DNA of 64,000 nucleotides. Origin: Chiloscyllium plagiosum (lineage: Eukaryota). The notes under the pieces are model-generated. The model ran no database searches, was not told the origin of the DNA, and was given only the letters and a program-made list of their open reading frames with translations. Below are positions 3,963 to 62,165 of this stretch, piece by piece. Where the stretch lies: the NCBI RefSeq assembly GCF_004010195.1, contig NC_057718.1:96433765-96497764 (forward strand), written 5' to 3'. The stretch's first letter is position 1. Each line of letters starts with the position of its first letter. Position numbers and translations under genes: made by a program.

Positions 3963-4002
3963 CCAGACGTTTCATTACCTGGCTAGGTAACATCATCAGT
4001 GG
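3963..4002 (-). ncRNA. minimal type-I hammerhead ribozyme motif (PLE-associated)
   Basis: Minus strand: CCA-CUGAUGA-U-GUUACC-UAGCCA-GGUAAU-GAAA-CG-UC/UGG; core intact, stem I CCA/UGG, palindromic ACGU stem III. Confidence 0.8.
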
Positions 4003-4479
4003 CGACCTCCAAGTGAAGCGAAGCTGTTGTCTCCTGCTTTCGATTTATATGTTAGTCCTGGATGGGGTTCCTGGGGTTTGTGGTGATGTCATTTCCTGTT
4101 TGTTTTCTGAGGGGTTGATAGATGGCATCTATCTATGACTCTATGACTCTATGACTCTAGATCTGTGTGTTTGTTTATGGCATTGTGGTTGGAGTGCCAG
4201 GCCTCTAGGAATTTTCTGGCATGTCTTTGCTTAGCCTGTCCCAGGATAGATGTGTTGTCCCAGTCCTGGGACAGGCTAAGCAAAGACATGCCAGAGAATT
4301 CCTAGAGGAATAGCACTCCAACCACAACGCCATAAATAAGCACATAGATCTAGATGCCATCTATCAACCCCTCAGAAAACGAACAGGAAATGACATCGCC
4401 ACAAACCCCAGGAACCCCATCCAGGAGAAAGATATAAATAGAAAGCAGGAGACAACAGCTTCGCTTCACGTGGAGGTCG

Positions 4480-4519
4480 CCACTGATGATGTTACTTAGC
4501 CAGGTAATGAAATGTCTGG
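4480..4519 (+). ncRNA. hammerhead ribozyme motif, second (mutated) copy
   Basis: CCA-CTGATGA-T-GTTACT-TAGCCA-GGTAAT-GAAA-TG-TC-TGG; two C>T changes versus the left copy. Confidence 0.65.
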
Positions 4520-4754
4520 ATATCAAACCTACAGCTCAGTGAGCAAACCTACACCCTACACTACCAAGTGATGTTGCAGCAGATTGACTTGTGTATTACC
4601 TTCACCCAAGAGTGTCTGTAGAATTCTTCTATAATCTGTTTATTGCACCTGATGAGATACTACTTTTACCTTTTACCTTTTTTGACCAAATGGCAAAATA
4701 TTAAATCTCAGGCCACACTGGATGCAACTTCTTAAAAACCAAATGAACTGTATA

Positions 4755-4862
4755 CACTGTAAATCAGAAATACAGACAGAAATTGCTGGTAAAGCTCAGC
4801 AGATCTGGCAACACCCGTGGAGAGAAATCAGAGTTGCGTCGAGTGACCTTTCCTCAGAGCTG
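4755..4862 (-). mobile_element. short PLE-derived element (family B)
   Basis: CAGAAATTGCTGG..AAGCTCAGCAGATCTGGCA..GAGAGAAATCAGAGTT..GTGACCTTTCCTCAG, homologous to 33130-33355 and 53362-53450. Confidence 0.65.
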
Positions 4863-5149
4863 AATGCAATTTCGTATTTGCGATACTTAGTTATGGGCGA
4901 TTTTAGATACATATCTGTGGGTTTTGTACACTTCTGAACCTACTTTGCTCAGTTACAATGTGCAAGTTAATAACCATTTCAGATTTGACCATTATGTTGG
5001 AGCTTTATACTAGAAACTTTCCAACTTCACAATTGGTGCGGTTGGTGCATTTTGACATGCCGCACCCAAATTTTCAACAGTTCAAAGCTCAGTTGAGGCC
5101 TAACTTGCTCCTCTCCAATTATTCCACATACTTCTTTAGAAATTCACAT

Positions 5150-5392
5150 AAACCAGCCTCCATGGAGAGGCAGTGAGCTAATGTTTTGAGTCGAGATGAC
5201 TCTTCATCAGAGCTGATGTGAAGTATGGAGGGAGGAGCATTTATTGCATAAGTGCTGCCTCCCTGTCACCATAGCATAAATGCTGCCCTTTCCATACTTC
5301 AGAAGAGTTGTCTAGACTTGAAAGGTTAGCTCGCCCTCTCTCTCAATGGATGCTGCCTGACCCACTGTGATCTCCAGCATTTGCTGTTATCA
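5150..5392. mobile_element. palindromic PLE-derived element (family C) with hammerhead-like core at 5176-5214 (-)
   Basis: Minus strand: AGCU-CUGAUGA-A-GAGUC-AUCUC-GACUC-AAAA-CA-UU-AGCU; degenerate inverted copy near 5298-5332. Confidence 0.65.
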
Positions 5393-7129
5393 GCACAGCC
5401 CCCAGCATGTGCATTAATTTGCTCTGACAAAAATTCAGCTCAAATGCCGCATGCAAACCTCTGACCACTCTACCTTTAAACCTTCTATTATAATATCACA
5501 TTAATAGGGAGAGGAATAGGCTGGATTTGTGCTCCAAACATTTCCCCATTCAGTCACAAAATCCCTGCAGATTTTACATTTTACTGATCATTTCAGTTTG
5601 CCATACAGAGGAACCTCTTTACTGATTACGATGACTCTGGAAGACTCTGTAACTCCACCAACACCAACCATCTTTGACAAGCAGCTGTGCACACAAAACC
5701 GCTCCATTCTCATCCCCAGCTGCTTCTTCCTTCAACTTTAATCTCAGGTTGGGCTGAACAACCTATATCATTGTCCTGGCCTGCCATCAGGTTTCTCCGC
5801 TCAATGCCACACTTGAATGACTCTCTGTCGTTATACTATTTGTAGGTAATGAAAGGTGTAATTAGCTTTGTTCACTTGCAAACTGATCCCCCTCTGCGTG
5901 CATTATAAAAGGTAATGAAATAGGGGCGCAGATATAAAAAACCTGAATACTCATATTATTCAATGTCATTTCATGAGCCAAACGCTGATGAAAGAACTCA
6001 GGTAAGAGAGATTCAGATGGTTCAAAACCCAACAACAGGACTTGTCAGTAGCCACAATGTTAAGGGCTGCATTAAAGTATGTAAGATCTAAACAGAGCCG
6101 ATACTTAATCAATTCTTTATTGTGTTGCCTTTTGAATAATTGATGGTTTTTCTTGATGATTGCTTTCCTATGACAGTATCTTATCTCTCTTTGGGGACAT
6201 TGTGTGAGAGAGAGAGGTTTTGGCTCCGCGTCCTGTGCCTGACATTAACCAGGTTTATCTTCTTTATGAAGCTGTCGTCTCCTGGTTAATTGTTCTCGCT
6301 GGCTATTGTTTCCTGGCCGAGCCATCTGCTTTATCACCCTACATCAGTTGTCTGAAGGAATGAATGCAGGTGGCCATAAAGGCTCAGCACTAAACGCACA
6401 AAGCAGACAGGATTTTAATGTGGACCGTCTTATTGCTGTAACATTATTGCTTGCTGGAGGCCAGTCCAGAGATGCAGTAAATGAATGTTTGAATAGCTGC
6501 ATGCAATTGTGTAATGGCTTGTAGTTTATAGGTTGTGGAAGACACCGTGCATTGACATCACTGTCAAACCTTTAGAATGGATTCTCTGATGAGATGTGGA
6601 CCTGGTCAGCTAAAACACACAGTGCAAACAATTTTAGGTATGTTTAATGCTTTATTGCTAAAGCTACACTTCGGGTTGAGGGCTGAGGTGCAACCATTCA
6701 GTTTTTGATTTTGGACATTTGGTTGTCAATATGATTAATGCTGTGAACTGAACCACTGATTTCCCTGCCGAACTTTTCATCCACATCCCACTCCAGGAGT
6801 AACACACAACTTTGAAGTTTTGACTCCATGCAGTGCGGATGGGAGGGTGACTCCCAATGCAGCCACACTCCTTTTTAGGAGACACGAAATCCCAGCCGTG
6901 CCTTCAGATGGGTCTTAAGAACTCCAGAGCAGTTCCCAAACAGCAGCAGCTGTCAATCCTCTTCTCCAAACTGGCATCAAAGTCAGAGATTATTAATCGC
7001 TCTTCCCACTGCTGGTTGTGGGGCTCACATTTGTGTTCACCTGCATCAAAACAGAGCAGTTCATCGCCTGTAGTGCCTTGGGAAGTGGTGAGACATGTGA
7101 AAGCACCATTCAATGCATGGGCGAATGGA

Positions 7130-7262
7130 TATGGAGCTGGAAGAGCACAGTAGGTCAGAGAGTATCCAAGGAGCATGAAAGTCAAGGGCTGGGACCCTTC
7201 ATCAGAGTGCTCTCCCAGCTTCACATCTATTGACTCTGACTTCCAGCATCTGCAGTCCTTGC
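7130..7262. mobile_element. degenerate palindromic PLE-derived element (family A)
   Basis: GCTGGAAGAGCACAG...CCCTTCATCAG...CCAGCATCTGCAGTC. Confidence 0.55.
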
Positions 7263-7288
7263 TGTATCCTAGACATATAAGTGCATGA

Positions 7289-7747
7289 TTAGAGTGGTGC
7301 TGGAAAAGCACAGCGGGTCAGGCACCATCCAAGGAGCAGGAAAATCGACATTTCAGGCAAAAGCCCTTCATCAGGAATCCGGAGTCCACGTGGGATCAGT
7401 TGGTTATGGATGCAGGCACTGTGGAAGCTAATGTCTCTGTGGTAGTGAGTCTGCATCAGTACATGGTTTAAGAGCTTCAGGGCAGAGGATATGGCCTGCG
7501 GGTTGCAGTGAGAGCGAGAGAGAGACTCACTGAGATTCTTGTGGAGAGAGGAGGAGAACTTCTTCAAGGTAGGCGTCCTTGCAAGAGGATTCACAGTAAG
7601 GTTAAAATCAACTAGGCGAAAGTGAGGACTGCAGATGCTGGAAACAAGAGTTTAGATTAGTGTGGTGCTGGAAAAGCACTGCGGCTCAGGCAGCATCTGA
7701 GGAGCAGGGAAATCGATGTTTCGGGCAAAAGCCCTTCATCAGGAATC
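7289..7747 (-). mobile_element. Penelope-like element: pLTR, ORF 5' part, pLTR
   Basis: Two direct family-A repeats with hammerhead cores (7368-7374, 7736-7742) flank ORF sequence HRDISFHSACIHNQLIPRGLR, resembling PLE N-termini (HxxFLxxCxxxxLIPxGL). Confidence 0.75.
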
Positions 7748-7809
7748 ATTAAGTGGATGATTTTGCTTTCCTAATCATTATGTGCAAAGTTGGGAGTTAG
7801 TTTGGAAAG

Positions 7810-7995
7810 CTGGTTCGCAATGTTGAGACTCACAAACAAGATGGGTTCAGTTCCTGTGCTGGAGGAGGTTTACAGGAAGGCCCTGCCTTCTCAACATCAT
7901 TCCCTGACTGAGGTACAGTGACCCTTAGGTTAAACTTCCCTCTAATCTCATAACTAATGAGAGATAACCCCTATGCTCCTCTGGGACAATGGTAA
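7810..7995 (+). mobile_element. old SINE-like repeat (family 3)
   Basis: GGGTTCAGTTCC B-box-like head and GTGACCCTTAGGTTAAAC core shared with 45130-45905. Confidence 0.5.
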
Positions 7996-8069
7996 TTAGT
8001 ATATGCATATGTATTAATGAATTCCTTTTCCCATAAAGTGACCAACATGCTTCAAATGATAAAGAATCA

Positions 8070-8610
8070 CAAAACCTGTACAGTGTAGAAAGAGGCCATT
8101 CGGCCTATTGAGTCACACTCTGAAGAGCACTCCACCCAAACCCAGTATCCAGCCACACTAAATACGTGGTTAATCCACCCAGCTTGCACACCCCCAATGA
8201 GCAATTTAGCATAAAAACCAAAGTTCTGAGGAAAGGTCACTCGACCAAAGTTTTAACCTTTGATTTCACTCCACAGATGCAACCAGACCTGCTGAGCTTT
8301 TCTAGCAATTCCTGTTTATGAACAATTCACCAAAGCCAGGAAGGAGTGAGGGCTATAGATGCTGGAGAGTCAGAATTTGCAGGCGTGGTGCTGGAAAAGC
8401 ACAGCAGGTCAAACAGCACACAAGGAGCAGCAGAGTCAACATTTTGGGCATAAGCCCTTCATCAGGAATGCACATTTTTGGAACTGTAGGGGGGAAAGCC
8501 CATACAAACAATGCGCAAACTCCACACTGACAGTTGCCCAAGGTTTGGATTGAACCTGGACCCCTTGTGCTGTGAGTCAGCAATGTTAACCATTGAGCCA
8601 CTGTACCAGA
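8070..8610 (-). mobile_element. HE1-type SINE interrupted by PLE-derived inserts (8220-8315 family B; 8340-8469 family A)
   Basis: HE1 head (reverse) at 8540-8608, tail at 8078-8110; inserts carry hammerhead-like cores. Confidence 0.7.
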
Positions 8611-9412: not shown

Positions 9413-9421
9413 TATGTTTTG

Positions 9422-12540: not shown

Positions 12541-13101
12541 CCTAACTCCCTGAAATCTGCTTTCAGGGCTTCATCTCTCTTCCTACCTGTCCTGCAGCTG
12601 TTCGATTACATTCCTGGCCCCACCCCTGACTATGTAAGCCCCTATCACTATCACCTTTCCATTCTTCAACCTTGCCCATCAGGCCCCCCCCACCGCACCC
12701 CCCCCCCCATTCTTCAACTTGCCCATCAGCCCCCCCCAATGACATCCCCCCGCCACCCCCTACCCCCCCAACCAGCATAGCTGTCATGACTGTGGCAAAA
12801 TAGACCTGGCTGCAATCCTATGAGTAACCATCGTCTTCACCAGTTTTGCAAAATGTTTTCCAATTCTCAAGCCGCATAGAACCAGATGGCTCTGGTACTT
12901 CCTGTCTGGTTTCCCTTGTCTGCCTGGCAATTTCCTATTCTGTTGCCACCCGCATGTTGCTAACATGTGATGTCAGCTCTACGTGCCTGTATGTGTTATC
13001 CATAGAGCCCTCTACCTCACAGATTCACAGTACAGACTCGAGCCACTGCCCATGTTCCAAAACCCAGCTCCAAAATGAGTTTGTGCAACTGGTGACACTT
13101 A

Positions 13102-15440
13102 AGAGTCATAGAGTCACAGAGATGTACAGCATGGAAACTGACCCTTCTGTGCCGACCAGATATCCTAAGCTAATCCAGTCCCATTTGACAGCATTTGGCT
13201 ATTATCGCTCCAAATCCTTTCTATGCATATACCCATCCAGATGCCTTTTAAAAATTGCAATTGTACCAACCTCCACCACTTCCTCTGGCAGCTCATTCCA
13301 TACACACACCATCCTCTGTGTGAAAGAATTGCCCCTTAGAACCCCTTAAAATCTTTCCCCCCTCATGTGAAATTTGTGCCCTTTAGTTCTGGACTCTACC
13401 AACCCTGGGGAAAGACTTTGCCTATTTTCCTTATCCATGCCCCTCATGATTTTATAAACCTCTATAAGATCACCCCTCAGCCTCCGACGCTCTGGGGAAA
13501 ACAGCCCCAGCCTATTTAGCCTCTCCCTGTACGTCAAACCATCCAACCCTGGCAACATCATTGTAAATCTTTTCTGAACCCTTTCAAGTTTCACAACATT
13601 CTTCCTACAGGAGGGACACCAGAATTGCATGGAATATTCCAAAAGTGGCCTAACCAATATCTGTACAGCTGCAAAATGACCTCCCAACTCCTATACTCAG
13701 TGCTCTGACCAATAAATGAAAGCATACCAAACACCTTCTTCACTATCCTATCAACCTGAGACTCCACTTTCAATGAACTATAAACCTGCACTCCAAGGTC
13801 TCTTTGTTCAGCAACACTCCCTAGGACCTTACCATTAAGTGTATAAGTCCTGCTAAGATTTGCTTTCCCAAAATTAAGTACCTCACATTTATCTAAATTA
13901 AACTCCTTCTGCCACTTCTCAGCCCGTTGGCCCATCTGATCAAGATCCTGTTGTACTCTGAGGTAACCCTCTTCGCTGTCCACTACACCTCCAATTTTGT
14001 TATCAGCTGCAAACCTACTAACTATGCCTCCGATGTTCACATCCAAATCATTTATATAAATGATGAGAACCAATGGGCCCAGCACCGTTATTTATGGCAC
14101 TCCACTGGTCACAAGACTAGTTCTCCCTGTATTCTATGAGCTCTAACCTTGCTCACCAGTCTCCCATGGGGAACTTTGTCAACTGCCTTATTGAAGTCCA
14201 TGTAGATCATATCCACTGCTCTGTCCTCATCAGTCCTCTTTGTTACTTCTTCAAAAATCTCAATCAAGTTTGTGAGACATGATTTCCCACGCACAAAGCC
14301 AAGATGACAATCCCTAATTAGTCCTTACCTTTCCAAATACATGTAAATCCTGTCCCTCAGGATTCCCTCCAACAACTTGCCCACCACTGATGTCAGGCTC
14401 ACTGGTCTAAAGTTCCCTGACTTGTCCTTACCACATTTCTTAAATAGTTGACAACGGGATCTTAATCAGATGGACCAATGGGCTGAGGAGTGTCAGATGG
14501 AGTTTAATTTAGATAAACGCAAGGAGCTGTATTTTGGGAAAGCAAATCTTAGCAGGACTTATACACTTAATGGTAAGATCCTAGGGAGTGTTGCTGTATA
14601 TAGAGACCTTGAAGTGCAGATTCATAGCTCCTTGAAAGTAGAGTCGCAGGTAGATAGGATAGTGAAGAAGGCGTTTGGTATGCTTTTCTTTATTGGTCAG
14701 AGTATTGGATACGGGAGTTTGGAGATCATGTTGCAGCTGTACAGGACATTGGTTAGACCACTGTTGGAATATTGCATGCAATTCTGGTCTCCTTCCTATC
14801 GGAAGGATTTTGTGAAATTTGAAAGAGTTCAGAAAAGATTTAAAAGGATGTTGCCAGGGTTGGAGGATTTGAGCTATGGGGAGAGACTATTCAGGCTGGG
14901 ACTGTTTTCCCTGGAGCGTCAGAGGCTGAGGGGTGACCTTATAGAGGTTTATAAAATCATGAGGGTCATGGATAGGATAAATAGACAAAGTCTTTTCCCT
15001 GGGGTGGGGGAGTCCAGAACTAGTGGGCATAGGTTTAGGGTGAGATGGGAAAGATATAAAGGAGACCTAAGGGGCAACTTTTTCACGCAGACGGTGGTAT
15101 GTGTATGGAATGAGCTGCCAGAGAAAATGGTGGAGGCTAGTACAATTACAGCATTTAAAAGGCTTCTGGATGGGTATATGAATCGGAACAGTTTGGAGGG
15201 ATATGAACTGGGTGTTGGTAGATGGGACTAGATTGGGTTGGGATATCCGGTCGGCATGGACTGGTTGGACTGTAGTGTCTGTTTCCGTGCTGTACATTTC
15301 TTTGACTCTATGACTGCATGGTACCATGTTAGCCAACCTCCAGTGTTCTGGCACCTCACCCTGTGACTATTGATGATACAAATATCTCAGCAACTATCCC
15401 AGCAATTACGTGCCTAACTTCCCCACAGATTCCTAGGGTT
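13102..15440 (-). mobile_element. CR1 LINE (host copy), interrupted at 14449-15317
   Basis: ORFs 13346-13687, 13591-14085, 14109-14294; sequence resumes at 15318 (GGTACCATGTTAGCCAACC) right after CTTAAATAGT at 14448. Confidence 0.92.
14450..15315 (+). mobile_element. CR1 LINE 3' fragment inserted antisense into the host CR1
   Basis: ORF 14470-15231 (QMEFN..K, RPLLEYCMQFWSP, LRGNFFTQTVV); GACTCTATGACT tail. Confidence 0.95.
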
Positions 15441-15504
15441 CCTGCAGATTTGCATATTTCTATTACATCTCAGATGCTGCGGGATGCAAACTCCACTTGG
15501 CCTA

Positions 15505-15600
15505 ATTCCTGATGAAGGGCTTATGCCTGAAATGTCAATTTCCCTCCTCCTCAGATGCTGCCTGACCTGTTGTGCTTTTCCAGTGCCACTCTCCACTCTG
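15505..15600 (+). mobile_element. PLE-derived family A element with hammerhead-like core
   Basis: CTGATGA-A-GGGC-TTAT-GCCT-GAAA-TG-TC at 15509-15536. Confidence 0.7.
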
Positions 15601-27049: not shown

Positions 27050-27255
27050 GTAGACAGGCAGGAGGCTGGAAAAACAAGCAAGCCTGGCAGCATCAGGAGG
27101 TAGAGAAGACGACATTTAGGGCGTAACCGTCCTTCTGGTTATACCGGAAATGTCGACTACTTCACCTCCTGATGCTGACTGGTTTGCTGTGTTCTCCCAG
27201 CCTCCTGCCTGTCTACTTTGGATTCCAGCATCTGCAGTTTTCTTTGTCTCTGACC
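27050..27255. mobile_element. palindromic PLE-derived short element
   Basis: GTAGACAGGCAGGAGGCTGG...CAGCATCAGGAGG / CCTCCTGATGCTG...CCAGCCTCCTGCCTGTCTAC inverted arms; CCAGCATCTGCAG end. Confidence 0.7.
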
Positions 27256-31614: not shown

Positions 31615-32135
31615 CCTACAATGTGGAAACAGGCCCTTTGGCCCAACAAGCCCACACTAAAGAGTACCCCACCCAGACCCATTCCCCAACCTTGTTAATC
31701 TACATTTCCTGACTACTGCACCGAACGAAAGGAGAGAGTGAGGACTGCAGATGCTGGAGATCAGAGCTGAAAATGTGTTGCTGGAAAAATGCAGCAGGTC
31801 AGGCAGCATCCAAGGAGCAGGAGAATCGACGTTCCTGAAGAAGGGCTCATGCCCGAAACATCGATTCTCCTGCTCCTTGGATGCTGCCTGACCTGCTGCG
31901 CTTTTCCAGCAACACATTTTCAGCTACTGCATCGAACCTACACATCCCTGAACACTTTGGGCAATGTAGCATGACCAATTCACCTAACCTGCACATCTTT
32001 GGACTGTGGGAGGAAACACGCAGACACGGGGAGAACGAGCAAACTCCACACAGACAGTCAGCCAAGGGTGGAATCAAATCCAAATCCCTACGACTACAAG
32101 GCAGCAGTGCTAACCACTGAGCCACCAAGCTGCCC
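31615..32135 (-). mobile_element. HE1 SINE with nested palindromic PLE-derived element (31733-31925)
   Basis: Insert arms AGCTGAAAATGTGTTGCTGGAAAA / TTTTCCAGCAACACATTTTCAGCT; central CTGAAGA-A-GGGC-TCAT-GCCC-GAAA-CA-TC; ACTGCA duplicated at the flanks. Confidence 0.85.
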
Positions 32136-33129
32136 AAGTAGCTTGCAGACGAGTACCAGAACTCCAATTTGCAACCCCAGTTTCTCCAATCAGGTCTCAA
32201 AGCTGAAATCACTCAACCCTGTGACTACACTGGGAAATGTCCTTTAAATACTGTAATATCCTTCGAAAAAGTTGATATAACATCTTGGCTCCAATCAGTT
32301 CTGTGGCAGATAACTCAAGTTGGAGCAAAATAACAGCCGGGTAAGAGAAAGTGTGGAGTTCAAAGTGCCAATGATTGTTCTTCCTGTTTGTTCAGCGGGA
32401 TATCCTGAGAAAGAGTGAAGGAATTCCGAAAGCCAGTGGCTTTCCAAATATGAAATTCTGAGAAATGACAGCTGAAGCATGACCAGCATCAATCCATCCA
32501 GAGAAAGTAATTGCTGGTAAAGAAATGAAAAGTTTGACTGCTTTTAATCTGCCGACTTGTTTCAAAATACTTTCCAAAATTGGAGCGCTCAAAGTTTTGT
32601 CTTCCCCACAAATATGCCCTCTTGTGTTTGTCTATTCAACAACATGGAGGGGAAACTGGCAGATTTGAGAAGCTTGTTGCATATTCCACTTTCTCAAGGC
32701 AATTATGTTATTGTACAGGAGTTCAGATGTTTTATTAAAGAGAGATTGCTGGTGCCCAAGGTAAATGCTTATTCACATAACATTTAGCTCCTTGCATTTC
32801 AATTTAACATACACTCTATACTGTTGCATCTATCTTTAGGATCATCTTTCCGAACTTGACTTACCATTGACATATTTAAAAATTAACCATTTATTCTACA
32901 CCTCCCCCATGTTATTGTTGGTATACAATATTTACAATGTTCCAACATATCCCTCGTAAGTCTCTGTCTCACAAGTGGTTTCACCATGTAGCCAGAATCT
33001 CTTCACAATTACCTCGGAGGTAGTTAAGAATCTGTGTTCTCCAACTTTTTAGTTGCAGTCTGTGAATCATTGTCCCTTGTTCATGTTCTCTTCCAAGATG
33101 TCTGGATAACTAGTCCATCCTATTAATGA

Positions 33130-33355
33130 CACAAAAACAGACATTGCTGGAAAACCTCAGCAGGTCTGGCCGTGTCTGTGGAGAGAAATCAGAGATAAAT
33201 GTTTCGGGTTGAGTAACCTGTGTTCTGACGAAGGGTCACGGGACCCAAAACGCTAACTCTAATTTCTCTCCACAAAAGCTGCCAGATCTGCTGAGATTTT
33301 CCAGCAATTTCTGTTTCCATTTCTGATTTCTAGCATCCACAGTTCTTTCGGTTTC
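33130..33355. mobile_element. palindromic PLE-derived element (family B)
   Basis: Inverted arms; GTT-CTGACGA-A-GGGTC-ACGG-GACCC-AAAA-CG-CT-AAC at 33222-33257. Confidence 0.75.
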
Positions 33356-36994: not shown

Positions 36995-38597
36995 TGCTAT
37001 TGTAAGGACAGACTGACGGGCAGAGGTGGTGGGGTGGCCATGTTGGTAAGGGATGATATTCAGTCCCTTGCGCGGAGGGACCTAGAATCAGGGATGTAGA
37101 GTCAGTGTGGATAGAGCTGAGAAATACTAAGGGTAAAGAGACCTTCTTTGGGAGTTATCTACAGGCCCCCAAACAGTAGTCTGGTTGTCGGATGTAAGTT
37201 GAATCAGGAGCTGAAATTGGCCTGTCGCAAAGATGTTACTACAGTCTTTATGGGAGATTTCAACATGCAGGTAGACTGGGAGAATCAGGATGGTATTGGA
37301 CCTCAAGAAAGAGACTTTGTGGAGTGCCTCAGAGATGGATTCTTAGAACAGCTGGAGCCGACCAGAGAGAAGGCAATTCTGGATCTGGTATTGTGCAACG
37401 AACCAGAATTGGTCAGGGACCTCGAAGTGAAGGAGCCATTGGGAAGTAGTGACCATAATACAATAAGCTTCAATCTGCAATTTGAGAGGGAGAGGGTACA
37501 ATCGGAAGTGACAATATTTCTGTTGAATAAAGGGAACTATGGAGCTATGAGGGAGGAGCTGGCTTTTTACAATCTATCTTCAGGATATACAAGATGGTAT
37601 TAGCAATAACATTCGCAAATTTCATCAGCTGGGTGGCAGGGTGAAATGTGATGAGGATGTTAGGAGATTACAGGGTGACCTGGACAAGTTAGGTGAGTGC
37701 TCAGATGCATGGCAGATGCACTTTCACGTGGATAAATGGATCCTTATCCACTTTGGTGGCAAGAACAGGAAGGCAGATTACCACCTAAGTGGAATCAATT
37801 TAGGTAAAGGGGCAGTACAGAGAGATCTGGGGGTTCTTGTACACCACTCAATGAAGGTAAGCATGCAGGTACAGCAGGTAGTGAAGAAGGCTAATAGCAT
37901 GCTGGCCTTCATAACAAGAGGGATTGAGTATAGAAGCAAAGAGGTCCTTCTGCAGCTGTACAGGGCCCTGGTGAGACCACACCTGGAGTACTGCGTGTAG
38001 TTCTGGTCTCCAAATTTGAGGAAAGACATTCTGGCTATTGAGGGAGTGCAGCGTAGGTTCACGAGGTCAATTCCTGGAATGGCGGGATTACCTTACACTG
38101 AAAGACTGGAGTGACTGGGCTTGTATACCCTTGAGTTTCGAAGATTGAGAGGGGATCTGATTGAGACGTATAAGATTATTAAAGGATTGGACACTCTGGA
38201 GGCAGGAAACATGTTTCCGCTGATGGGTGAGTGCCGAACCAGAGGACACAGCTTAAAAATAAGGGGTAGACCATTTAGGACAGAGATGAGGAGAAACGTC
38301 TTCAGCTTAAAAATAAGGGGTAGGCCATTTAGGACAGAGATGAGGAGAAACTTCTTCACCCAGAGAGTGGTGGCTGTGTGGAATGCTCTTCCCCAGAGGG
38401 CGGTGGAGGCCCAGTCTCTGGATTCATTTAAGAAAGTGTTGGATAGAGCTCTCAAGGATAGTGGAATCAAGGGTTATGGAGATAAGGCAGGAACAGGATA
38501 CTGATTAAGGATGATCAAGCATGATCATATTGAATGGTGGCGCAGGCTCGAAGGGCAGAATGGCCTACTTCTGCACCTATTGTCTATTGTCTATTGT
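36995..38597 (+). mobile_element. CR1-group LINE with APE endonuclease remnant, internal deletion and RT C-terminus
   Basis: GVIYRPPN, MGDFN, ILDLVLCN, LGSSDHN (endonuclease); LQGDLDKL..WQMHF, RPHLEYC; (CTATTGT)n tail. Confidence 0.92.
38249..38356 (+). repeat. 54-bp tandem duplication inside the LINE
   Basis: SLKIRGRPFRTEMRRNxF encoded twice in frame. Confidence 0.95.
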
Positions 38598-39130
38598 CCC
38601 TTCATTGGATCTATCTTCCCAAGCCATTTGATTTTCAGTGTCTGCATGGCCAGCTCCTTCTCTTTCACTGAGCTAGTCCTTTGTGTGATTCTCCTGTTGC
38701 CTCATCCTGCTGCTGGGTCTCTCATCCACCATGACCATTTGCTTTTGGTGGGGGGGGGGAGTGGCTTGCCTCTGCTTCACAGAAGCTACTGGAAATGCAT
38801 TCAGAATACATTTACCACATAAATGAATTGAGCAGCTTGCCTTAAGGAAAGTCTAGGTGGGCTCAACCTGTATCATAGAATTATAGAATCCCTGCAGTCT
38901 GGAAGGGATACACAGGCACACACGCTTGCTTATCAACCTGTAAAACCTTTCTGCGTACTATCGACAGGCCGTAAGCGTGGAAGAGCGTCCTGGACAGCTA
39001 CCTGAAGTGGCAGCTTCAGGGCAACAGTCTCCCTACATTAAAAGACACCATCCATAGCTCTTGGTCATGTGTACCCTCAACCCGAGACACTACCTCACGT
39101 CAAATGAGAAAATTCACTATTTTAAAAATA

Positions 39131-39302
39131 GTTAAAAATCACACAAACCAGGTTAAAGTCCGACAGGTTTACTTGGAAGCACTAGCTTTCGGAGTGCTGC
39201 TTCAACCACTTGTGCTCCAAAAGCTAGTGTGCTTCCAAATAAACCTGTTGGGCTCTAACCTGGTGTGGTGTGATTTTTAACTTTGTCCACCCCAGTCCAA
39301 CA
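39131..39302. mobile_element. palindromic PLE-derived miniature element (family D)
   Basis: GTTAAAAATCACAC..CCAGGTT..ACAGGTTTA.TTGGAAGCACTAGCTTT / AAAGCTAGTG..GCTTCCAA.TAAACCTGT..AACCTGG..GTGTGATTTTTAAC. Confidence 0.8.
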
Positions 39303-41221
39303 CAAAAGAAAATTAAAAATAGTCCTTTGTGCTCAGGGAATGAACTCTGATTTCTTGCAGAAGTCTTGTTTCTTTTACTTTGCATGGAGACGAAAATTGT
39401 CAATCCCTAACTTCAGAGAGAGACAGAAGTCTGTTGATGCAAAGGTTTATTCTTCCACCAGCACCACACTTCCACCTCTCAGCCAAAGTAAAACCCAATT
39501 ATGAGGACCAAACTTTAAAGTCAAAACGTTTAGAAAACAAAGTAAGGAAAAATGGAGCTGGTGTTGGTGAAATGAGGGTAAAATGTGAAACTGGCTAAAA
39601 GATTAAACACAAAATTGGCATTCGTGGCTGAAGGATTAAATACGAATCTGGCATTGGCGACTCAAGGGTTAAATTTGATTCCTTTTAACTAATGGTATGT
39701 CCTAGCCATCAGGTCAGCAACCTCACTCTCACACCCACTCTGTTTACACAGCTTCCAACAGTTCAAAAAGCCAAAGGCAGATCACAAGCAGAGAGCTGAG
39801 CCAAAAAAATCTCTGACACAGGGTTATAATCAGCGACGTCTGAAAGGTAAAACCTTTGCATCTGCTTTAAAACGTGTTCAGACTGGACCACTCAGAGCGA
39901 CAGCAGAGCAAGCCTGCTTGTGAGGATGGGCAGATGCCCATTCTTGTGGGGACATCAGAATTGACAAGCGAAAGGATCTAACTAAGCATGACGCAGATTG
40001 TGTGCCCATTGGGTTTAAGGTATGAGGGTGTGGAGTACGCAGGGATGGCTAGTGTGAGGCAGCTGTTTGCAGTCATTTAGCTCACGGCTATGAGTTACAA
40101 CCCTGCCGGAAAATTACCACCAACTGACAGATCATACAGTGTGCCCCAGCTGTAATTTAGCCCTGAGAGGGAATTTTACATTGATCAGATGTAGAGATTT
40201 AAAATGACTCACATCCAAATGGGAGAATCTGGGCTGAAGGTTAAAAATCCACTGTTCAGCCTGTGCAAGCATTCTAGCCAAGACATTTAAAGACAGTGGA
40301 ATGTTGATGAACCTGTGTGAAAACCCTTCATTTCTCTCCATTCATTACATCATGCTTCTGCTGCTTTGCAACTTCAAAGGGAACAAGTTACTCTTTGCAC
40401 TGCCTTCTGATTTAAGGTGTTTAAAATCCACTTAGCTGAAGACATGGTATTATTTCTGCACACATCAGTCTCTGTGAGGTCAACGATGTGGGGGGAAGGG
40501 GGGACTACAAAGCAAGAGAAAAGTTTCTTTTTTTTTAAACAAGACAAACCCTCCTAGCGAACGCTGACAAACTGGCAAGAAACGTTCCGACATATCCGCT
40601 GTCACAAGGCGAGAACTGAGCAGACCCCAAATAGTGACGAGTCTGTAATTATAATTTTCCTTTACTTTTCCGAAGGATCAAACCCGTGGACAACTGCAGC
40701 TATGACTGGTAACATCCCCGAGCCATTTTCACAGGGCAGGAAGCGTTGGTAACCTCTGTTATGGTAAAGGCTGAAATGGCAAAGAAAGCATTAACTGTAA
40801 CTAAAAGTAAAGCCTGTCCCACTGAGCTGCAAAAGTCCGGAAGAAGATGTGCGATTTTAAACAAGTACAGAGTAAAACATAAATATTACTGTAGAGAGTC
40901 AATATCCTGAAAGAAAAGGTATTTCCTTCACCACAATCACCGTGTATCAAGGCCCACTGTTTTTATATTTAAAGGGAACCATCGTGTTATGTTAGAGTTG
41001 AGCATGTGATGATAGTTTTGAACACTGAGACTAATTGTAGACCAGTGTCAGCACATGTTATGGGGCAGGAATTAGGGGTGAGTTGGGACACACAGGTAGA
41101 GGTATTAAACAGGATTGGACTTCCACTTGTTTAGTTTTCAACCACATTTCTGATGTTAGAAAATCGCCAGATTCATTCAAATAGCCAATCAGGAATTCAT
41201 CCCCCCCCCCCAAAAAAAAAC

Positions 41222-41460
41222 CCCAAACAGCTGGGCATGCTAGAAATCAGAAACAAAATAGGAAATTGCTGGAGAAACACTGCAGCTCAGGCAGTGTCAG
41301 TGGAGAGAAAGCAGCGTCAACGTTTCGGGTCCAGTGATCCTACTTCAGAACAGAAGAAGAAGGGTGTTCTGAGGAAGGGTCACTGGACCCGAAACGTTAC
41401 ATCAGCTTTCTCTTTGCACAGATGCTTCCTGAGCTGCTGAGTTCTTCCAGCAATGTCTGG
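41222..41460. mobile_element. palindromic PLE-derived element (family B) with two opposed hammerhead-like cores
   Basis: Plus: CTGAGGA-A-GGGTC-ACTG-GACCC-GAAA-CG-TT at 41369-41398; minus copy 41316-41351. Confidence 0.8.
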
Positions 41461-42924: not shown

Positions 42925-43152
42925 CATTCCCGATGAAGGGCCTATGCTTGAAACGTCGATTCTCCTGCTCCTCAGATGCTGCCTGACCGGCTGTGCTTCT
43001 CCAGAAGTCACATGACACCAGGTTACAGTTCAATAGGTTCATTTGAAACCACAAGCTTTCGGAACGCTGCCCCTTCATCAGGTCTTCCAAAAGCTTGTGT
43101 GATTTCAAATAAACCTGTTGGGCTGTAACGCGATTTCATGTGACTTCTGACA
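42925..43152. mobile_element. adjacent PLE-derived elements: family A (42925-43003) and palindromic family D (43003-43152)
   Basis: Family D minus: AC-CUGAUGA-A-GGGGC-AGC-GUUCC-GAAA-GC-UU-GU at 43050-43084. Confidence 0.75.
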
Positions 43153-43189
43153 ATCTCCAGCTGCTGTAATGCTTTTACAGAAGGGTTTT

Positions 43190-45244: not shown

Positions 45245-45790
45245 TGATACAAATACAAGTGATACAAATATCTCAGTAAGAGGCCCAGCAATCATTTCCC
45301 TAACTTCCCACAGAGTTCTAGGGTACACCTGATCAGGTCCTAGGGATTTACCCACTTTTATGTGTTTCAAGCCATCCAGCATTTCTTCCTCTGTAATAGG
45401 GACATTTTTCAAGATGTCACCATCTATTTCCCTACATTCTATATCTTCCATGTCCTTTTCCACAGTAAACTCTGATGCAAAATACTCGTTTAGTATCTGC
45501 CCCATCTCCTGCAGCTCCACATAAAGGCCACCTTGCTGATCTTTGAGGGGAAAGTGAGGACTGCAGATGCTGAGAGATCAGAGCTGAAAAATGTGTTGCT
45601 GGAAAAGCGCAGCAGGTCAGGCAGCACCAAAGGAGCAGAAGGGCTTCCTGAAGAAGGGCTTATGCCCGAAACGGCGATTCTCCTGATCCTTGAGGGGCCC
45701 TATTATCTCCCTAGTTACCCTTTTGTCCTTAATGTATTTGTAAAAACCCTTTGGATTCTCCTTAACTCTATTTGTCAAAGCTATCTCATC
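45245..45790 (-). mobile_element. internal CR1 ORF2 fragment with PLE family A insert (45546-45686), nested in a family 3 SINE (45130-45905)
   Basis: EMGQILNEYFASEFT...KSLGPDQVYPRTLWE; no CR1 tail. Confidence 0.85.
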
Positions 45791-48173: not shown

Positions 48174-48176
48174 GAA

Positions 48177-50369: not shown

Positions 50370-51970
50370 GAGTCATAGAGATGTACAGCTTGGAAACAGA
50401 CCCTGCGGTCCAGCCCGTCCATGCCGACCAGATATCCCAACCCAATCTAGCCCCACCTGTCAGCACCCGGCCCATATCCCTCCTATCCCTTCCTATTCAT
50501 ATACCCATCCAAATGCCTTTTAAAGATTGCAATTGTACCAGCCTCCACCACATCCTCTGGCAGCTCATTCCATACACGCTTCACCTTTGCGTGAAAAAGT
50601 TGCCCCTTAGATCTCTTTTATATTTTTCCCCTCTCACTCTAAACCAATGCACTCTAGTTCTGGACTCCCCGACCCCAGGGAAAAGACTTTGCCTATTTAC
50701 CCTATCCATGCCCCTCATAATTTTGTAAACCTCTATAAGGTCACCCTTCAGCCTCCGACGCTCCGGGGAAAACAGCCCCAGCCTGTTCAGCCTCTCCCTG
50801 TAGCTCAAATCCTCCAACCCTGGCAACATCTTTGTAGATATTTTCTGAACCTTTTCAAGTTTCACAACATCTTTCTGATAGGAAGGAGCCCAGAATTGCA
50901 TGCAATATTCCAACTTTGGCCTAACCAGTGTCCTGTACAGCCGCAACATGACCTCCCAACTTCTGTACTCAGTACTTTGACCAATAAAGGAAAGCGTACC
51001 AAATGCCTTCTTCACTATCTTATCTACTTGCGACTCCATTTTCAAGGAACTATAAACCTGCACTCCAAGGTCCCTTTGTTTAGCTCCCGAGGACCTTATC
51101 ATTAAGTGTATAAGTCCTGCTAAGATTTGCTTTCCCAAAATGCAACACCTCGCATCTGAATTAAACTCCATCTGCCACTTCTCAGCCCATTGGCCCATCT
51201 GATCAAGATCCTTTTGTAATATGAGGTAACGTTCTTCGCTGTCCACTACACCTCCAAGTTTGGTGTCATCTGCAAAGATATTAACATTACCTCTTATGCT
51301 CACATGATCATTTATATACATGACGAAAAGAAGTGGACACAGCACTGATCCTTGTGGCACTCCACTGCTCAAAGGCCTCCAGTCTGAAAAACAACCCTCC
51401 ACCACCACCCTGTGTCTTCTACCTTGGAGCCAGTTCTGTATCCAAATGGCTAGTTCTCCCTGTATTCCGTGAACTCTAACCTTGCTAATCAATCTCCTAG
51501 GGGGAACCTTGTCGAACGCCTTACTGAAGTCCATATAGATCACATCTACTGCTCTGCCCTCATCAATCCTCTTTGTTACTTCATCAAAAAACCCAATCAA
51601 GTTTGTGAGACATGATTTCTCGCACACAAAGCCATGTTGACTATTCCTAATCAGTCCTTGCCTTTCCAAATACATGTACATACTGTCTCTCAGGATTCCC
51701 TCCAACAACTTCCCCACCACCGAGGTCAGGCTCACTGGTCTATAGTTCCCTGGCTTGTCCTTACTACCCTTCTTAAATAGTGGCACCACGTTAGCCAACC
51801 TCTAGTCTTCCAGCACCTCACCTGTGACTATCGATGATACAACTATCTCAGCAAGGGGCCCAGCAATCACTTCTCTAGCTTCCCACAGAGTCCTAGGGTA
51901 CACCTGACCAGGTCCTGGGGATTTATCCACCTTCATGTATTTCAAGACATCCAGCACTTCCTCCTCTGTA
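50370..51970 (-). mobile_element. CR1/HER1-type LINE, 5'-truncated, largely readable RT
   Basis: ORF 50581-51798 (405 aa): NYRPVSLTS, DFSKAFDKV, GVPQGSVL, FADDTK; short out-of-frame patch; tail at 50370. Confidence 0.96.
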
Positions 51971-53199: not shown

Positions 53200-53860
53200 G
53201 GGGCTCAGTAATATTAGAGTAGCATTAAGGCTGCAAGCAGACTATCTCAAACTGTTGCTAGGGAATGAGTTGCTAAAGTGCAGAATTTGGAATGGGGACT
53301 AAAAGCAATGGCTTTCAGCTTCCCAATAATTAACTGGAAGAAATTTCTGCTTGTCCAGTCAGGAATTGCTGGAAAAGCTCAGCAGATCTGGCAGCATCCA
53401 GGGAGAGAAATCAAAGTTAACGTTTCAGGTCGAATGAACCTTCCTCAGAGAAGCAAACTGACGATTGGACATTAGAGGAGCGATGGTGGCTGATGGAGGG
53501 CTGGGAGGTCCTCAGCGGACATGTGAAAGCGAACATAGTCTCACTGATTGATGAGAAATAGGAGGAGGCCACGGGTGGATCCTTGGGGTCAGCAGAGGTC
53601 AAGGAGTGGGAGCAGTACAAGAAGCCATTGCAAGTGTTTCTCTGATGACGCTTAGATAGAAAAGAATCGAATCATGCAAGAGCAGTCCCACCCAGTTGGA
53701 TGACAGTCAACAGGCATCAGAGATTAATTATATTGTCAATCATGTCAAAGGCTGTGAATAGGGCAATGAGGGAAGCGTTAACCTTTGTGACTGCCACTTA
53801 GAATGTCAATTGTATCTTTGATAAGAGTCAGTCAGTACTGTGACAGGGCGTGAAACACAC
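53200..53860 (-). mobile_element. old L2-like RT fragment with PLE family B insert (53362-53450)
   Basis: GGATCCTTGGGG (PQGS on minus), TGTCAAAGGCTG (AFD on minus); insert core CUGAGGA-A-GGUUC-AUUC-GACCU-GAAA-CG-UU-AAC. Confidence 0.6.
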
Positions 53861-54038
53861 ATCAGAGCCAAACACAACTATGAGTATTATTCTATCACCT
53901 AACACCACATTAAACAAGAATAATTGAATAATTCTGCAGTCAGCTCTGCTCTCCCTGCTGCAGGAAAGGTGTTGTCAAACTTGAAAAGGTTCAGAAAAGA
54001 TTTACAAGGATGTTGCCAGGGTCAGAGGGTTTGAGCTA

Positions 54039-54572: not shown

Positions 54573-54804
54573 CCACCTCTCCAGCCGCCCATGGAATTAC
54601 TTCTGGAATGTTCTGGAATGTTCTCCCTGGATGCTGCCAGACCTGCTGAGCTTTTCCAGCAATTCCTGACTGGACAAGCAGAAATTTCTTCCAGTTAATT
54701 ATTGGGAAGCTGAAAGCCATTGCTTTTAGTCCCCATTCCAAACTCTGCACTTTAGAAACTCATTCCCTAGCAACAGTTTGAGATAATCTGCTTGCAGCCT
54801 TAAT
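54573..54804 (-). repeat. inverted chimeric copy of 53224-53406 and 54114-54156
   Basis: Reverse-complement alignment with about 5 substitutions. Confidence 0.93.
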
Positions 54805-57112: not shown

Positions 57113-57149
57113 ATGTCATTCCTCTCACTGATGTTTGACAGTCTTTGAT

Positions 57150-57268
57150 CTGGAGAAAGTGAGGACTACAGATACTGGAGATCAGAGTCGAAAAGTGTGG
57201 GGCTGGATCAGGCAGCATCCGAGGAGTAGGAGTATCAACATTTCAGGCATAAGCCCTTCATCAGGAAA
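57150..57268 (-). mobile_element. PLE-derived family A (family B pieces at 57778-57905 and 58295-58392)
   Basis: Minus-strand CUGAUGA-A-GGGC-UUAU-GCCU-GAAA-UG-UU; TCTTTGATCTGG duplicated at the flanks. Confidence 0.75.
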
Positions 57269-58639: not shown

Positions 58640-59430
58640 CTTCAAGTCAGGAGTGTGATGGACTACTCCCCACTTGCCTGGATGAGTGCAGCTCCAACAA
58701 CAAAGAAGCTTGACACCATCCTGGACAAAGCAACCCATTTGACTGGCAACACATCCACAAACATTCACTCCCTCCAATACCAATGCTCAGTAGTGGCAGT
58801 GTGTACCATCTCCAAGATGCACTGCAGAAACTTCATAGAATCCCTGCAGTGTGGAAACAGGCCATTTGGCCCAACATGTTCACACCTACCCTCCGAAGAA
58901 TAACCCACCCAGACCCATTCCCCTACCCTATTTACCCCTGACTAATGCGCCTAACCTGCACAACCCTGGACACTATGTAGCATGGCAAAGTCAGCTAACC
59001 TGTACATCTTTGGATTGTGGGAGGAAACCGGAGCACCCAGAGGAAACCCTCGCAGATACAGGGAAAATGTGCAAACCCCACACAGAGAGTCACCTGAGGT
59101 AGGAATTAAACCCAGGTCCCTGGCGCGGTGAAGCAGCAGTGCTAACCACTGAGTCACCGTGCCACCCTCGGCCAGTACCTTTCAAACCCACAATCACTGC
59201 TACCTAGAAGGACAGTAGGACCTGCAAATTCCCCTCCAAGCCGTTCACTATCCTGACTTGGAACTATTCCTGCTCATTCAATGTTGCTGGGTTAAAATCC
59301 AAAGGAATTCCTTCCTAACAGCACTGTGGAAATACCTACATCAAATAGACTGCAGCAAATCAAGAAGGGTGCTCCCAACCACCCTCCCAAAGGTTAGCCA
59401 GTGAAACCCACCTCACCTGAATGAATTTTT
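58640..59430 (+). mobile_element. L2/CR1-group LINE 3' fragment with nested antisense HE1 (58835-59167)
   Basis: QVRSVMDYSPLAWMSAAPTTKKLDTI. Confidence 0.82.
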
Positions 59431-59499
59431 AAAAAGTCATCCAAACCATCAGCCTGACATACTATTTCTAAAAAATACTTTCACAGAAGTAGTCATGAG

Positions 59500-59693
59500 T
59501 TGGAGGTGCCGGTGTTGGACTGTGGTGGACAAAGTTCAAAATCACACAACACCAGGTTATAGTCCAACAGGTTTATTTGGAAGCACCAGCTTTCGAGGCG
59601 CTGCCTGTTCATCAGCGGTGAAGAGGCACTGCTCCAAAAGCTAGTGCTTTGAAATAAACCTGTTAGACTATAACCTGTTGTCTGATGTTTAAC
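59500..59693. mobile_element. palindromic PLE-derived miniature element (family D)
   Basis: Inverted arms as at 39131; minus core CUGAUGA..AGGC-AGC-GCCU..GAAA-GC at 59584-59617. Confidence 0.8.
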
Positions 59694-60743
59694 TTCACAG
59701 ATGTAGACGGGCTATCATTGGTTGTCCATCTTTAATTGCCATGGAGACAGAGGTGGGCAGCTGCTCTCTTCGACCACTGCAATTCCAATGCCTTTTCTCC
59801 CCTGCCATTCCTTTCTGGATTCTCTTAAATGCATCTGCGCAGTTTGCCTCAAATATTCCCAAGTTTCACATTCTAACTACTGTCTGTTCAAAGAAGTTTC
59901 CATCGAACTTGCTGTTGGATTTCTTAGTGCACTTCTCATAGCTATGGGCCCTGATGTTGCAACTACCAAAACCAGCAGCTTTGTTCCAGTTCTATATTTT
60001 CTGTCACTTTGTCCCTCAGTAAGAAAGTCGCGTTGCTTTGATTTAGCAATGTGAACAAAGAAATTTCAAAGGAGAAAAGGCTTTATTTCCTCCCCAGTCT
60101 CTGCTTTTCAATCTCAGCTGTATGTAGACGAGTACAAGATGTTACTTTCCATTAACAGCCTCAGGATATTAAATAAAGAAGAAATATGGCCTGAGCAGTT
60201 ATTGCAACAGAAGCCATTTAATGCCAAGTAACTTCCTGAACTCTGAAGTAGATCATGATTATAAATTATGATGATGTTGTTTAAGTATCTAAAAGGGTAC
60301 TGTCACAATAAAAAGTTGACAGAAAACACACTGGTGTTCAAAACAGCGAAGAGCCTGTGTTTTTTTCCCCCGGTACGCAGATGCCACCTGCAAGTTATAC
60401 AATGGCACATGTTGATGCAAACTGCATCTTTGCAAATAAAATTATAGAATTGCACAGCCCGGCCCATCATATCTGTAATATCTTACCGAATCAGCAACTC
60501 TCCTTATACTGTTCCCCTCCCTTCCACCTGAAACACTGCACATTGGTGCCTTAGTATTACAGTGGGAGGAAAACATTTGCAAAGTAATTCATCATGAGGA
60601 TAACATTTCTTTTAAAAACTAACAGCATCATTGCAGTTTTCCAGCCATACTTTACAAGGGTTTTGATGGTGATTATCTGCAGTGGAGTTATTTAGTTAAT
60701 GTACCACAATCCTTTTGACTACCATCTAGGGGGGAAGAATTCA

Positions 60744-61082
60744 GATTTGATTTGATTTGTTACGGTAACGTGTACCAAGGTACAGTGAAAAATGCTGTCT
60801 TCCATGCTTTACAGGCAGATAATTCTATAAAAGTTCATCAGCGTAACAGAATAGAGTGTAGAATGCAATGTTATAGCTCTGAGACGGTGCAGAGAGAGGG
60901 ATCAACATTAGCATTAAAGAGGTTGATTCCAGAGTCTGCTAAGTTTCTTTGTGAACCTCCTGTGCAGTGTAACCTTGTATGACTTGCTCTGTCTAAGCAC
61001 CCTATGATATGTATGTTTTTGTTTGCTATGATCTTCACAAAGCTTTTCACTGTGACTACAATAAATCAAATCAAATCAAATC
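60744..61082. mobile_element. element with inverted (GATTT)n/(AAATC)n LINE-like tails
   Basis: GATTTGATTTGATTT...TACAGTGAAAA and TTTTCACTGT...AAATCAAATCAAATC. Confidence 0.5.
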
Positions 61083-62044
61083 TTCATTCAGAGCCTATAT
61101 CAACCCCCAACTTGCAGCTTTTAATTCATTTTGATGGATACTCATGATTTCAGAGTGCCTCCTGTTGTGTTATGCCTCATGATCAGTGTGTTAATGTGCC
61201 TTAAAGAGACATGCTCAAGTCATGACTATAGCATGTGACCTGAAGGTGTAAAACCTCATACTTCATCTTATCCCTGGATCATGACACACCACCGGAATCA
61301 CGATCCTCTGTTGTAAGCCAATGGCTTAATATATGCACAAACAATTACGTGCTTGAGGAAGGTAATACTCGTACATAATACTTAATTGTAACAAACATCT
61401 ATTGGATTCTACAATACCATGATATCCGAGACCAAGTTGCTAATTTTACAGGACTAACAAAAAGTTGCCAGTTTTAACATAAACACTGCTGCAATCTGCA
61501 AACCCATGCCATGGTAGCGACAGGGGCATCAATAAAAGACTCCAGTATCTTGGTGGTAGGCATTCGGAACATTACTTGAAGACCAACTGTTTTGGACAAT
61601 GGTGAATTTCAACAAAGCAGGAGTTCCTCAGATGTAAGCAGTATCTGTTCATGTTTGATTCTCTCAAGCAGTTTTTTGCAGCAAAATCATGCTTACTGTA
61701 ATACTACAACCATTGGAAAGTCATGATTCACAAATGGTTACATGTAAAAAGGCAAGGAGGTTGTCTCTTGCAAGAAAAAGAAAGTTTATTGCTCTTGGTT
61801 CAAAACCCTGGCACCTCTACAATGCCCTGATGTTAAAACTCTCACCCTTTATTCAAGTACCATTGTGGCTTCGCACTCTGTCTATCGTCACAGCCTCCTC
61901 CAGCTGCACAATATCCACACTGCTCTAATCCTCACCTATTCAGCATCCCCTCTTGTAATAACTTCACCTTGTGCTGAGACCATCAGGCTCTGGCACCCCT
62001 TTTTGAAGCCTTCTTTAAGACCTCATCACTCCGATGTTCATGGA

Positions 62045-62165
62045 GGAAGTGAGGACTGCAGATGCTGAAGCGTCAGAGTCAAAATGTGTGGCACTGAAAA
62101 AGCACAGCAGGTCAGGCAGCATCCGAGAAGCAACAGAGTCGATGTTTCGGACATAAGCCCTTCAT
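62045..62165 (-). mobile_element. PLE-derived family A
   Basis: AGTGAGGACTGCAGATGCTG...GTTTCGGACATAAGCCCTTCAT. Confidence 0.75.

Follow-up and report, generated by a model that had tools for sequence, protein, structure and literature searches.

A 64,000-nt stretch of the Chiloscyllium plagiosum genome (contig NC_057718.1, positions 96,433,765 to 96,497,764; hereafter the window, from an assembly of 3.56 Gb) is dotted with short repeats that carry a minimal hammerhead ribozyme, and this raises the question of what these repeats are and how they multiply. An initial annotation had taken them for five divergent families of non-autonomous, retrozyme-like derivatives of Penelope-like elements (PLEs), distinct from ordinary short interspersed nuclear elements (SINEs) and miniature inverted-repeat transposable elements (MITEs). 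Following our analyses, the repeats are instead hammerhead-bearing terminal pieces, the pseudo-long terminal repeats (pLTRs), of five protein-coding PLEs, a ribozyme and an element class that are already known. The parent's enzyme probably inserted the short copies, or stubs, singly, in the form of short cDNAs, most of them run off the likely capped 5' end of the uncleaved RNA. It is this 5' boundary with its extra G, and not the motif, that adds to the picture of the PLE mechanism.

Hammerhead repeats and their parent elements

A check of the window sequence found the motifs where the initial annotation had placed them. A search of the suggested kind, with a structure descriptor that required the core, 4 bp or more in stem II and 2 bp or more in stem I, matched 7 times in the window. 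Fifteen dinucleotide resamples gave 0.13 matches on average and the reversed window gave 0, so the motif is not a chance product. Applied to 600 kb of unselected DNA it gave 43 matches, every one from the same families, and the bulged extra base was used in all 50. The suggested Rfam search was unsuccessful, as no hammerhead model matched in the window at E up to 5; the miRNA-like Rfam matches there were the hairpin insertions. A profile search of the window found 38 arms (A 17, B 11, C 2, D 6 and 2 of a fifth family, labelled PLE), a larger number than in the initial annotation, with 0 in the reversed control. Arm ends were analysed in 834 kb not picked for these repeats, consisting of the window and ten arbitrary stretches, and these held 313 arms (A 170, B 53, D 53, PLE family 31, C 6) that cover 24 kb, about 3% of the DNA, which extrapolates to approximately 1.3 million arms in the whole genome. 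Genome-wide, exact cores numbered at least 59,636 for A, 5,177 for D and 2,596 for B, with 0 for the reversed control patterns. These counts are lower bounds, and the exact-core pattern misses long copies with T at -11, so the share of short copies is not derivable from them (positions are given with hammerhead C3 as 0; the predicted cut in family A falls between +27 and +28).

Ten family or subfamily representatives were compared, chosen for intact cores and a paired stem II. In these, CUGANGA and GAAA-NN-UH are invariant, while N7 (U, A or G), the bulged base, loop II and H17 (C, U or A) vary. Stem pairs were counted by anchors, the MAFFT alignment having displaced family D by one column, and 66 of 70 stem cells were paired (shuffle mean 37.4; 0 of 5000 shuffles as high, which is not a probability given that the representatives were preselected and that related rows share changes). 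Because the stems were intact by choice, this count describes the fold and does not prove it. The compensatory changes claimed between families are nevertheless present: the first pair of stem I swaps between C-G, U-A and A-U, and the second pair of stem II between G-C, A-U and U-A. The extra base after A9 and the 4-nt palindrome (ACGU or AGCU), also claimed, occur in 10 of 10 representatives, and most family A subfamilies have a U-U mismatch in stem I (AUUC/GAUU). By sequence, then, these are PLE-derived minimal hammerheads of type I. The downstream tail is common to families A, B and C, which are therefore related, so that the five families, all of which we recovered, amount to three independent lineages. 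Further hammerhead-bearing PLE families were seen beyond these five (L234:3332-3370, L175:2265-2303, L020:1216-1259 and L292:5737-5780), comprising a second D-like family with stem I UGC/GCA and two more Poseidon-like families.

Individual copies are less well preserved than the family forms. More than 15 loci had been said to share the core; the motifs are real, but only 10 of the 15 listed loci keep it, and core, stem II and palindrome survive together in 3 (3963, 41366 and 43050), with 0 of 8 among the family A loci. The core-breaking changes are G12A at 8434 and 5176, U4C at 42927, U16.1G at 45646, and G12A with U16.1C at 33222. Likewise, the stems quoted for each family hold for the family and often differ at a given locus. 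Decay is common, in line with the initial annotation, and most copies in the window are damaged; among arms spanning the motif, core and palindrome survive in 44/115 of A, 3/23 of B, 17/36 of D and 10/22 of the PLE family.

In longer copies, all five families run upstream into PLE reverse-transcriptase (RT) and GIY-YIG endonuclease (EN) coding sequence, in agreement with the proposed PLE origin. The segments are broken yet ordered in every family, with RT, then C-terminal GIY-YIG, upstream of the pLTR. Near-complete but broken parents were found for A (L241, L293), B (L272), C (L233/L244/L245), D (L242) and the PLE family (L239/L240), and RT or EN matches lie within 1.5 kb upstream in 18 of 30 family B loci. 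The segment at 7380-7650 (minus strand), between two family A hammerheads, is the N-terminus of a PLE open reading frame (ORF); its relatives continue into RT and have GIY-YIG sequence before them. RVT_1 matches had E values of 2e-8 to 2e-4, with only the Poseidon piece passing the Pfam cut-off, and the EN pieces had no Pfam match. The family D endonuclease was assigned to GIY-YIG clusters at 0.97, with the family label on 26-27% of their members, and the RT had no match among solved structures. A suspected full-length young element on C12 proved to be two separate stubs. The CX2-5CxxC linker between RT and EN, which marks Neptune and is absent in Poseidon (PMC8557442, PMC3846280; these and all later papers are cited for their accessible parts), was found in A, B, C and D and is absent in the PLE family. 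This linker, which is all that the labels rest on, suggests that families A-D are Neptune-type and the fifth family Poseidon-type.

The insertions themselves fit the published pattern for PLEs with an endonuclease: 5' truncation, an inverted 5' copy, a tail on one arm and a variable target duplication. In family A (n=166), 82 arms have 3' ends at +70-102, 0 at +103-113 and 70 at +114-140; the two classes, about 35 nt apart, correspond to a 30-40-nt tail on one arm. Head-to-head neighbours within 60 nt involve 78 of 170 family A arms. Target duplications of 12-17 bp were found at 7 of 13 window insertions checked. In a very young family A subfamily (L174:6350-6387, L182:1675-2063) the copies are identical and stem I is perfect (AUUC/GAAU), which suggests recent activity.

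Most of this has precedent. The motif with its extra base (between 9 and 10.1, with a G10.1-C11.1 pair), the palindromic helix III, the presence in one genome of several consensus families that differ by compensatory changes, a majority of single copies (attributed to truncated PLEs), and opposite-strand pairs 100-700 bp apart have all been described for PLE hammerheads, including the Poseidon and Neptune elements of fish (PMC4209133). The differences lie in number, with approximately 4,000-9,000 copies in coelacanth and Xenopus against at least 59,636 exact cores in family A alone, and in the sharp 5' boundary and extra G, which the accessible part of that account does not mention. The initial annotation was right to separate the repeats from SINEs and MITEs, as the copies are end pieces of protein-coding PLEs; the MITE-like hairpins and SINE-like stubs, with their roughly 3% share of the sampled DNA, then need no family of their own.

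The 5' boundary and the extra G

Out of 166 family A arms, 61 end at -5 to -1, 27 of them at -4, and 42 extend beyond -11. The chance of ending per base is 0.135 at -5 to -1, compared with 0.005 at +10 to +40 and 0.009 at -50 to -11. We could find hardly any ends near the predicted cut: 2 of 166 fall at +26 to +30, both at +26, and with 0 of 166 at +27 to +30 the possibility of ends defined by cleavage was rejected. In families B and D, 13 of 50 and 11 of 53 arms (7 of these at -3) end at -5 to -1, with 3 of 50 and 1 of 53 at +26 to +30. In the Poseidon-type family 18 of 23 arms extend far upstream, and 4 ends at -2 may be reference limits. The pile-up is therefore pronounced in A and recognisable in B and D, and the Poseidon-type family shows none. 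Neither this sharp boundary at the front of stem I nor the extra G had been noticed in the initial annotation. In unselected DNA, with the window insertion at 3884-4561 included, 6 of 20 Poseidon-type arms end at -219 to -247, possibly at an RNA start of that family's own or at the limit of the reference.

Upstream of the 61 short ends in family A we found an inverted element arm in 38, flanking DNA in 21 and a direct jump in 2, and no missed long copy was scored among them. The flanks of family A short copies were alike only in two local duplicate pairs. The 20 loci selected because they contain the ORF N-terminus include 7 in which the sequence leaves the ORF at varying points and resumes 4-10 nt from C3, as it does at 7378 in the window. 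The landing point is precisely -4 in 3 of the 7, and in the remaining 4 it reads as -4/-5 or -9/-10 according to the reference used; a start at -7 to -3 is also present in 5 of the 20. A 3' splice site at -4 was considered and rejected for A and D, as there is no AG and no shared upstream exon. A hammerhead cut at -5/-4 in another permutation was also rejected, with neither UH nor stem I in that position.

The base that precedes the boundary was counted genome-wide for family A, in copies with ATTC directly before the core and excluding G at -6 for both bases. G was found at -5 in 4,564 copies and A in 1,584, compared with a background G:A ratio of 0.55-0.67, and the long family A copies examined have T or C there. 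The upstream contexts of the listed copies are diverse and include at least four subfamilies. When the loci at the head of each list were screened by script, the base proved to have a template in 13 of 50 cases for G and in 9 of 40 for A; with templated cases removed, the G excess is still about four-fold. Within a local set (135 copies), ATTC follows C in 16 cases, G in 12, T in 8 and A in 4. Copies that end at -3 are preceded by G in only 3 of 18 cases. The window copy at 7746 has the extra G following its target duplication.

The surroundings of A(-4), TCATTCC and CTATTCC in A and TCAGTTC in B, resemble the initiator consensus. A start in this region is also in keeping with published work, in which the PLE start site lies in the pLTR (PMC2377424, PMC8557442). 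In L1 and SVA, an untemplated G at the fixed 5' end is read as a copied cap, and 5' inversions are ascribed to twin priming (Hancks and Kazazian 2016, PMC4859970); there the extra G marks full-length elements, whereas here it is found on products of 90-130 nt. From these analyses, the extra G likely marks the capped start of the element RNA. A literature search, with most subscription papers, Repbase and Dfam outside its scope, found no description of a capped 5' end at a PLE hammerhead.

Origin of the short copies

A number of observations weigh against a capped start at A(-4). The pile of family A ends is broad, from -4 to -1, and all end positions depend on the 30 reference copies against which they were measured. 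Family D peaks at -3, where the base is C, and this position is more readily explained by the edge of stem I than by a start site at a purine. As to the G, inspection by eye raised the loci with a possible template to as many as about 17 of 50, and roughly half of the rest follow filler bases; moreover, element-derived junction partners contain GATT and no AATT, so the G count is inflated by microhomology. Counted by hand, the bases before the boundary in family B give only a weak G excess (7 G, 5 A, 3 T), and visual inspection of family D revealed none. The same G would also arise, with no cap involved, if the RT added a C whenever it reached the end of a template. One old family A subfamily has 16 short copies and 1 long, although it may lack a reference, and no intact full-length ORF was present among the loci examined. 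RNA reads speak neither for nor against such a start, as read-through from many genomic copies dominates them: in about 2% of a polyA single-cell run (X20), placed on two family A copies, reads came from both strands with a depth profile like that of a DNA contig, and no place was seen where many molecules begin; X21 gave no placed reads.

Could the boundary instead be set by the ribozyme fold, with a 5'-3' exonuclease halted at the base of stem I, or an RT that drops off once the ribozyme has been copied and adds a non-templated C? The peak does match the 5' edge of stem I in both A (-4, 4 bp) and D (-3, 3 bp), and some jumps reach -9 or -10 and not -4. However, stem I of family A is weak, having the U-U mismatch, and the 42 long arms read through it; G is in excess only directly before -4 and not before -3; and, from established RT behaviour, an RT that stalls should do so 3' of the fold, where ends are rare. 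We consider this explanation unlikely. Still harder to sustain is ordinary random truncation at the 5' end, in which case the pile-up would be a product of arms joining at microhomologies or of the limits of alignment. Many junctions at -3 and -2 do share TTC or AAT with the inverted arm, and 38 of the 61 short ends abut such an arm, but the 21 that adjoin flanking DNA, several with target duplications, do not fit, nor does a per-base ending rate 15-26 times the background or a G excess that remains once templated cases are removed. This is the least credible of the alternatives and, in our estimation, almost certainly wrong.

The proposal of the initial annotation, that the short repeats are independent non-autonomous families, transcribed, cleaving as dimers and spreading through their own RNA, is improbable. 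The repeats do recall a SINE-like family in their defined 5' end, their target duplications and their great abundance. In addition, Penelope has an internal promoter (PMC2377424), and a stub whose 5' end is the start site might therefore be transcribed; Chlamydomonas is described as having non-autonomous PLEs (PMC8557442); and head-to-tail hammerhead pairs occur, including 7289-7746 in the window. Like non-LTR retrozymes (Cervera and De la Pena 2020, PMC7229834; Li, Clavereau and Pollet 2026, bioRxiv 10.64898/2026.07.22.740005), the copies have a type-I hammerhead and pLTR homology and, when short, are noncoding. The retrozymes, however, are head-to-tail tandem units with a hammerhead in each and are expressed as circles, whereas the copies here are solo or head-to-head. 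The window has no tandem arrays of head-to-tail hammerhead units, and its arm lengths differ from locus to locus; only 16 same-strand neighbour pairs within 1 kb were found among 170 family A arms, with unit lengths that differ per locus. The junction of the two-hammerhead unit at 7289-7746 is shared by none of 19 related loci, and a double-hammerhead fold of this pair lies 19 kcal/mol above the minimum. In hairpin copies the ribozyme would be buried in a long duplex. Family A ends are not at the cleavage site, and long copies carry RT and EN sequence. Finally, 104 family A arms were placed on a tree, which has few columns and only rough support, and on it the short copies require 31 changes compared with 33.9 when shuffled, 81 of 500 shuffles being as low, and the long copies cluster slightly (16/500). 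Short and long family A arms are thus mixed with no short-only clade, and the short copies of this family are not a separate lineage.

Two further observations concern the pair at 7289-7746. Its tandem hammerheads have opposite CpG decays (ACAU and AUGU) and are still fully complementary to each other. Their 368-nt spacing is near the 363-bp mean consensus length of the retrozymes reported in one cartilaginous fish (bioRxiv 10.64898/2026.07.22.740005).

We therefore return to stubs made by the parent's enzyme from the end of an uncleaved RNA, for which the following sequence of events can be proposed. RNA polymerase II would start at A(-4), so that bases 1-4 of the transcript would form the 5' strand of stem I. 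Nicked DNA would serve the RT as primer, with synthesis beginning at either of two internal positions, roughly 85-95 or 120-130 nt downstream, and the product would be only 90-130 nt because the RT starts so close to the RNA 5' end. On the 5'-most pLTR it would run off the RNA, often leaving an extra G as its copy of the cap; from a pLTR further downstream it would continue into the 3' untranslated region and ORF, truncating at random. Two such cDNAs, one per target strand, may then join into a hairpin, or the RT, on reaching the end of the RNA, may switch to another template. A cut at +27/+28 would take away both the cap and the ribozyme, and cleaved RNA is evidently not the template, judging from the absence of ends at the family A cut site. 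This is in line with PAc, the Poseidon element of Anolis carolinensis, in which uncleaved RNA is the template, no read ends at the cut site and two adjacent internal RT start sites, shown in vitro, result in a 30-40-nt tail (Frangieh et al. 2024, PMC11167929). Cleavage in PAc is protein-assisted, and in the accessible part of that report the RNA 5' end and cap are unmapped; families A-D, in contrast to PAc, would be Neptune-type.

How PLEs replicate and what their hammerhead is for are open questions in the literature (PMC8557442, PMC11167929). On the present reading, tens of thousands of insertions would record the start of the template RNA, uncut at its hammerhead. If that start does lie four bases ahead of the core, the ribozyme would decap the RNA by cutting it and so withdraw it from both translation and retrotransposition. 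Perhaps, and here we see the case as evenly balanced, the capped transcript of a Neptune-type PLE begins with the hammerhead as a self-decapping switch at nucleotides 1-32, and a strong-stop-like cDNA of 90-130 nt either inserts, to the order of a million arms, or jumps templates and creates head-to-tail pairs, a possible route for the birth of non-LTR retrozymes.

Features of the window

Table 1. PLE-derived insertions in the window (positions with a sign are relative to C3)
Feature	Coordinates	Strand	Arms	Remarks
Poseidon-type insertion	3884..4561		head-to-head, 3884-4265 (-) and 4264-4561 (+)	each arm with endonuclease C-terminus, hammerhead and 3' end; C3 3999 (-) intact; C3 4483 (+) palindrome decayed, missing from the initial annotation; 17-bp imperfect target duplication
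Family C pair	5154..5424		head-to-head, 5154-5254 (-) and 5268-5424 (+)	both arms start ~42 nt upstream of C3; C3 5210 (-) with G12A
Family A insertion	7289..7746	-		13-bp target duplications; two hammerheads 368 nt apart; order: hammerhead (C3 7742, G-ATTC before), tail, PLE ORF N-terminus (7380-7650), second hammerhead (C3 7374), entered by a jump to its -4
Family A solo stub	8336..8470	-	-5 to +127	G12A
Family A solo stub	15500..15592	+	~-10 (loose alignment) to +83	core intact, palindrome decayed
Family A hairpin	31731..31925		+22..+124 (-) joined to -3..+90 (+)	15-bp imperfect target duplication
Family B hairpin	33128..33354		+29..+98 (-), -3..+129 (+)	core broken
Family D hairpin	39130..39303		+10..+82, +16..+103	CUGA box missing from both arms
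Family B hairpin	41214..41453		-6..+134 (-), -3..+82 (+)	+ arm: core, stem II and palindrome kept
Family A stub	42926..43004	+	from -4	U4C
Family D hairpin	43005..43154		-2..+76 (-), +18..+84 (+)	- arm: core, stem II and AGCU palindrome kept
Family A hairpin	45547..45692		+32..+124 (-), -3..+44 (+)	U16.1G; 17-bp imperfect target duplication
Family B stub	53360..53449	-	-1..+88	core intact, stem II mismatched
Family A solo stub	57152..57267	-	-3..+124	14-16-bp target duplication
Family D hairpin	59495..59695		0..+120 (-), +4..+83 (+)	15-bp imperfect target duplication; G10.1C in - arm
Family A stub	62047..62165	-	+3..+122	begins inside the core
Further A and B arms	4735, 7132, 8222, 11489, 27065-27238, 29789, 36176, 48786, 54624, 57780, 58298

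In the Poseidon-type insertion, an 8-nt tandem repeat of 3.5 copies (4132-4159) interrupts one arm, and the arm junction (4210-4300) forms a near-perfect 40-bp hairpin. A 183-nt inverted repeat (53224-53406 against 54622-54804), 98% complementary with its halves 1.2 kb apart, includes part of a family B tail; as it is much younger than the family B element, it is probably a local duplication. Otherwise the window is dominated by decayed long interspersed nuclear element (LINE) copies with RVT_1 and endonuclease domains (509-1937, 13100-15265, 37121-38504 and 50372-51801), and it also holds a tRNA-SINE-like repeat in at least nine copies.

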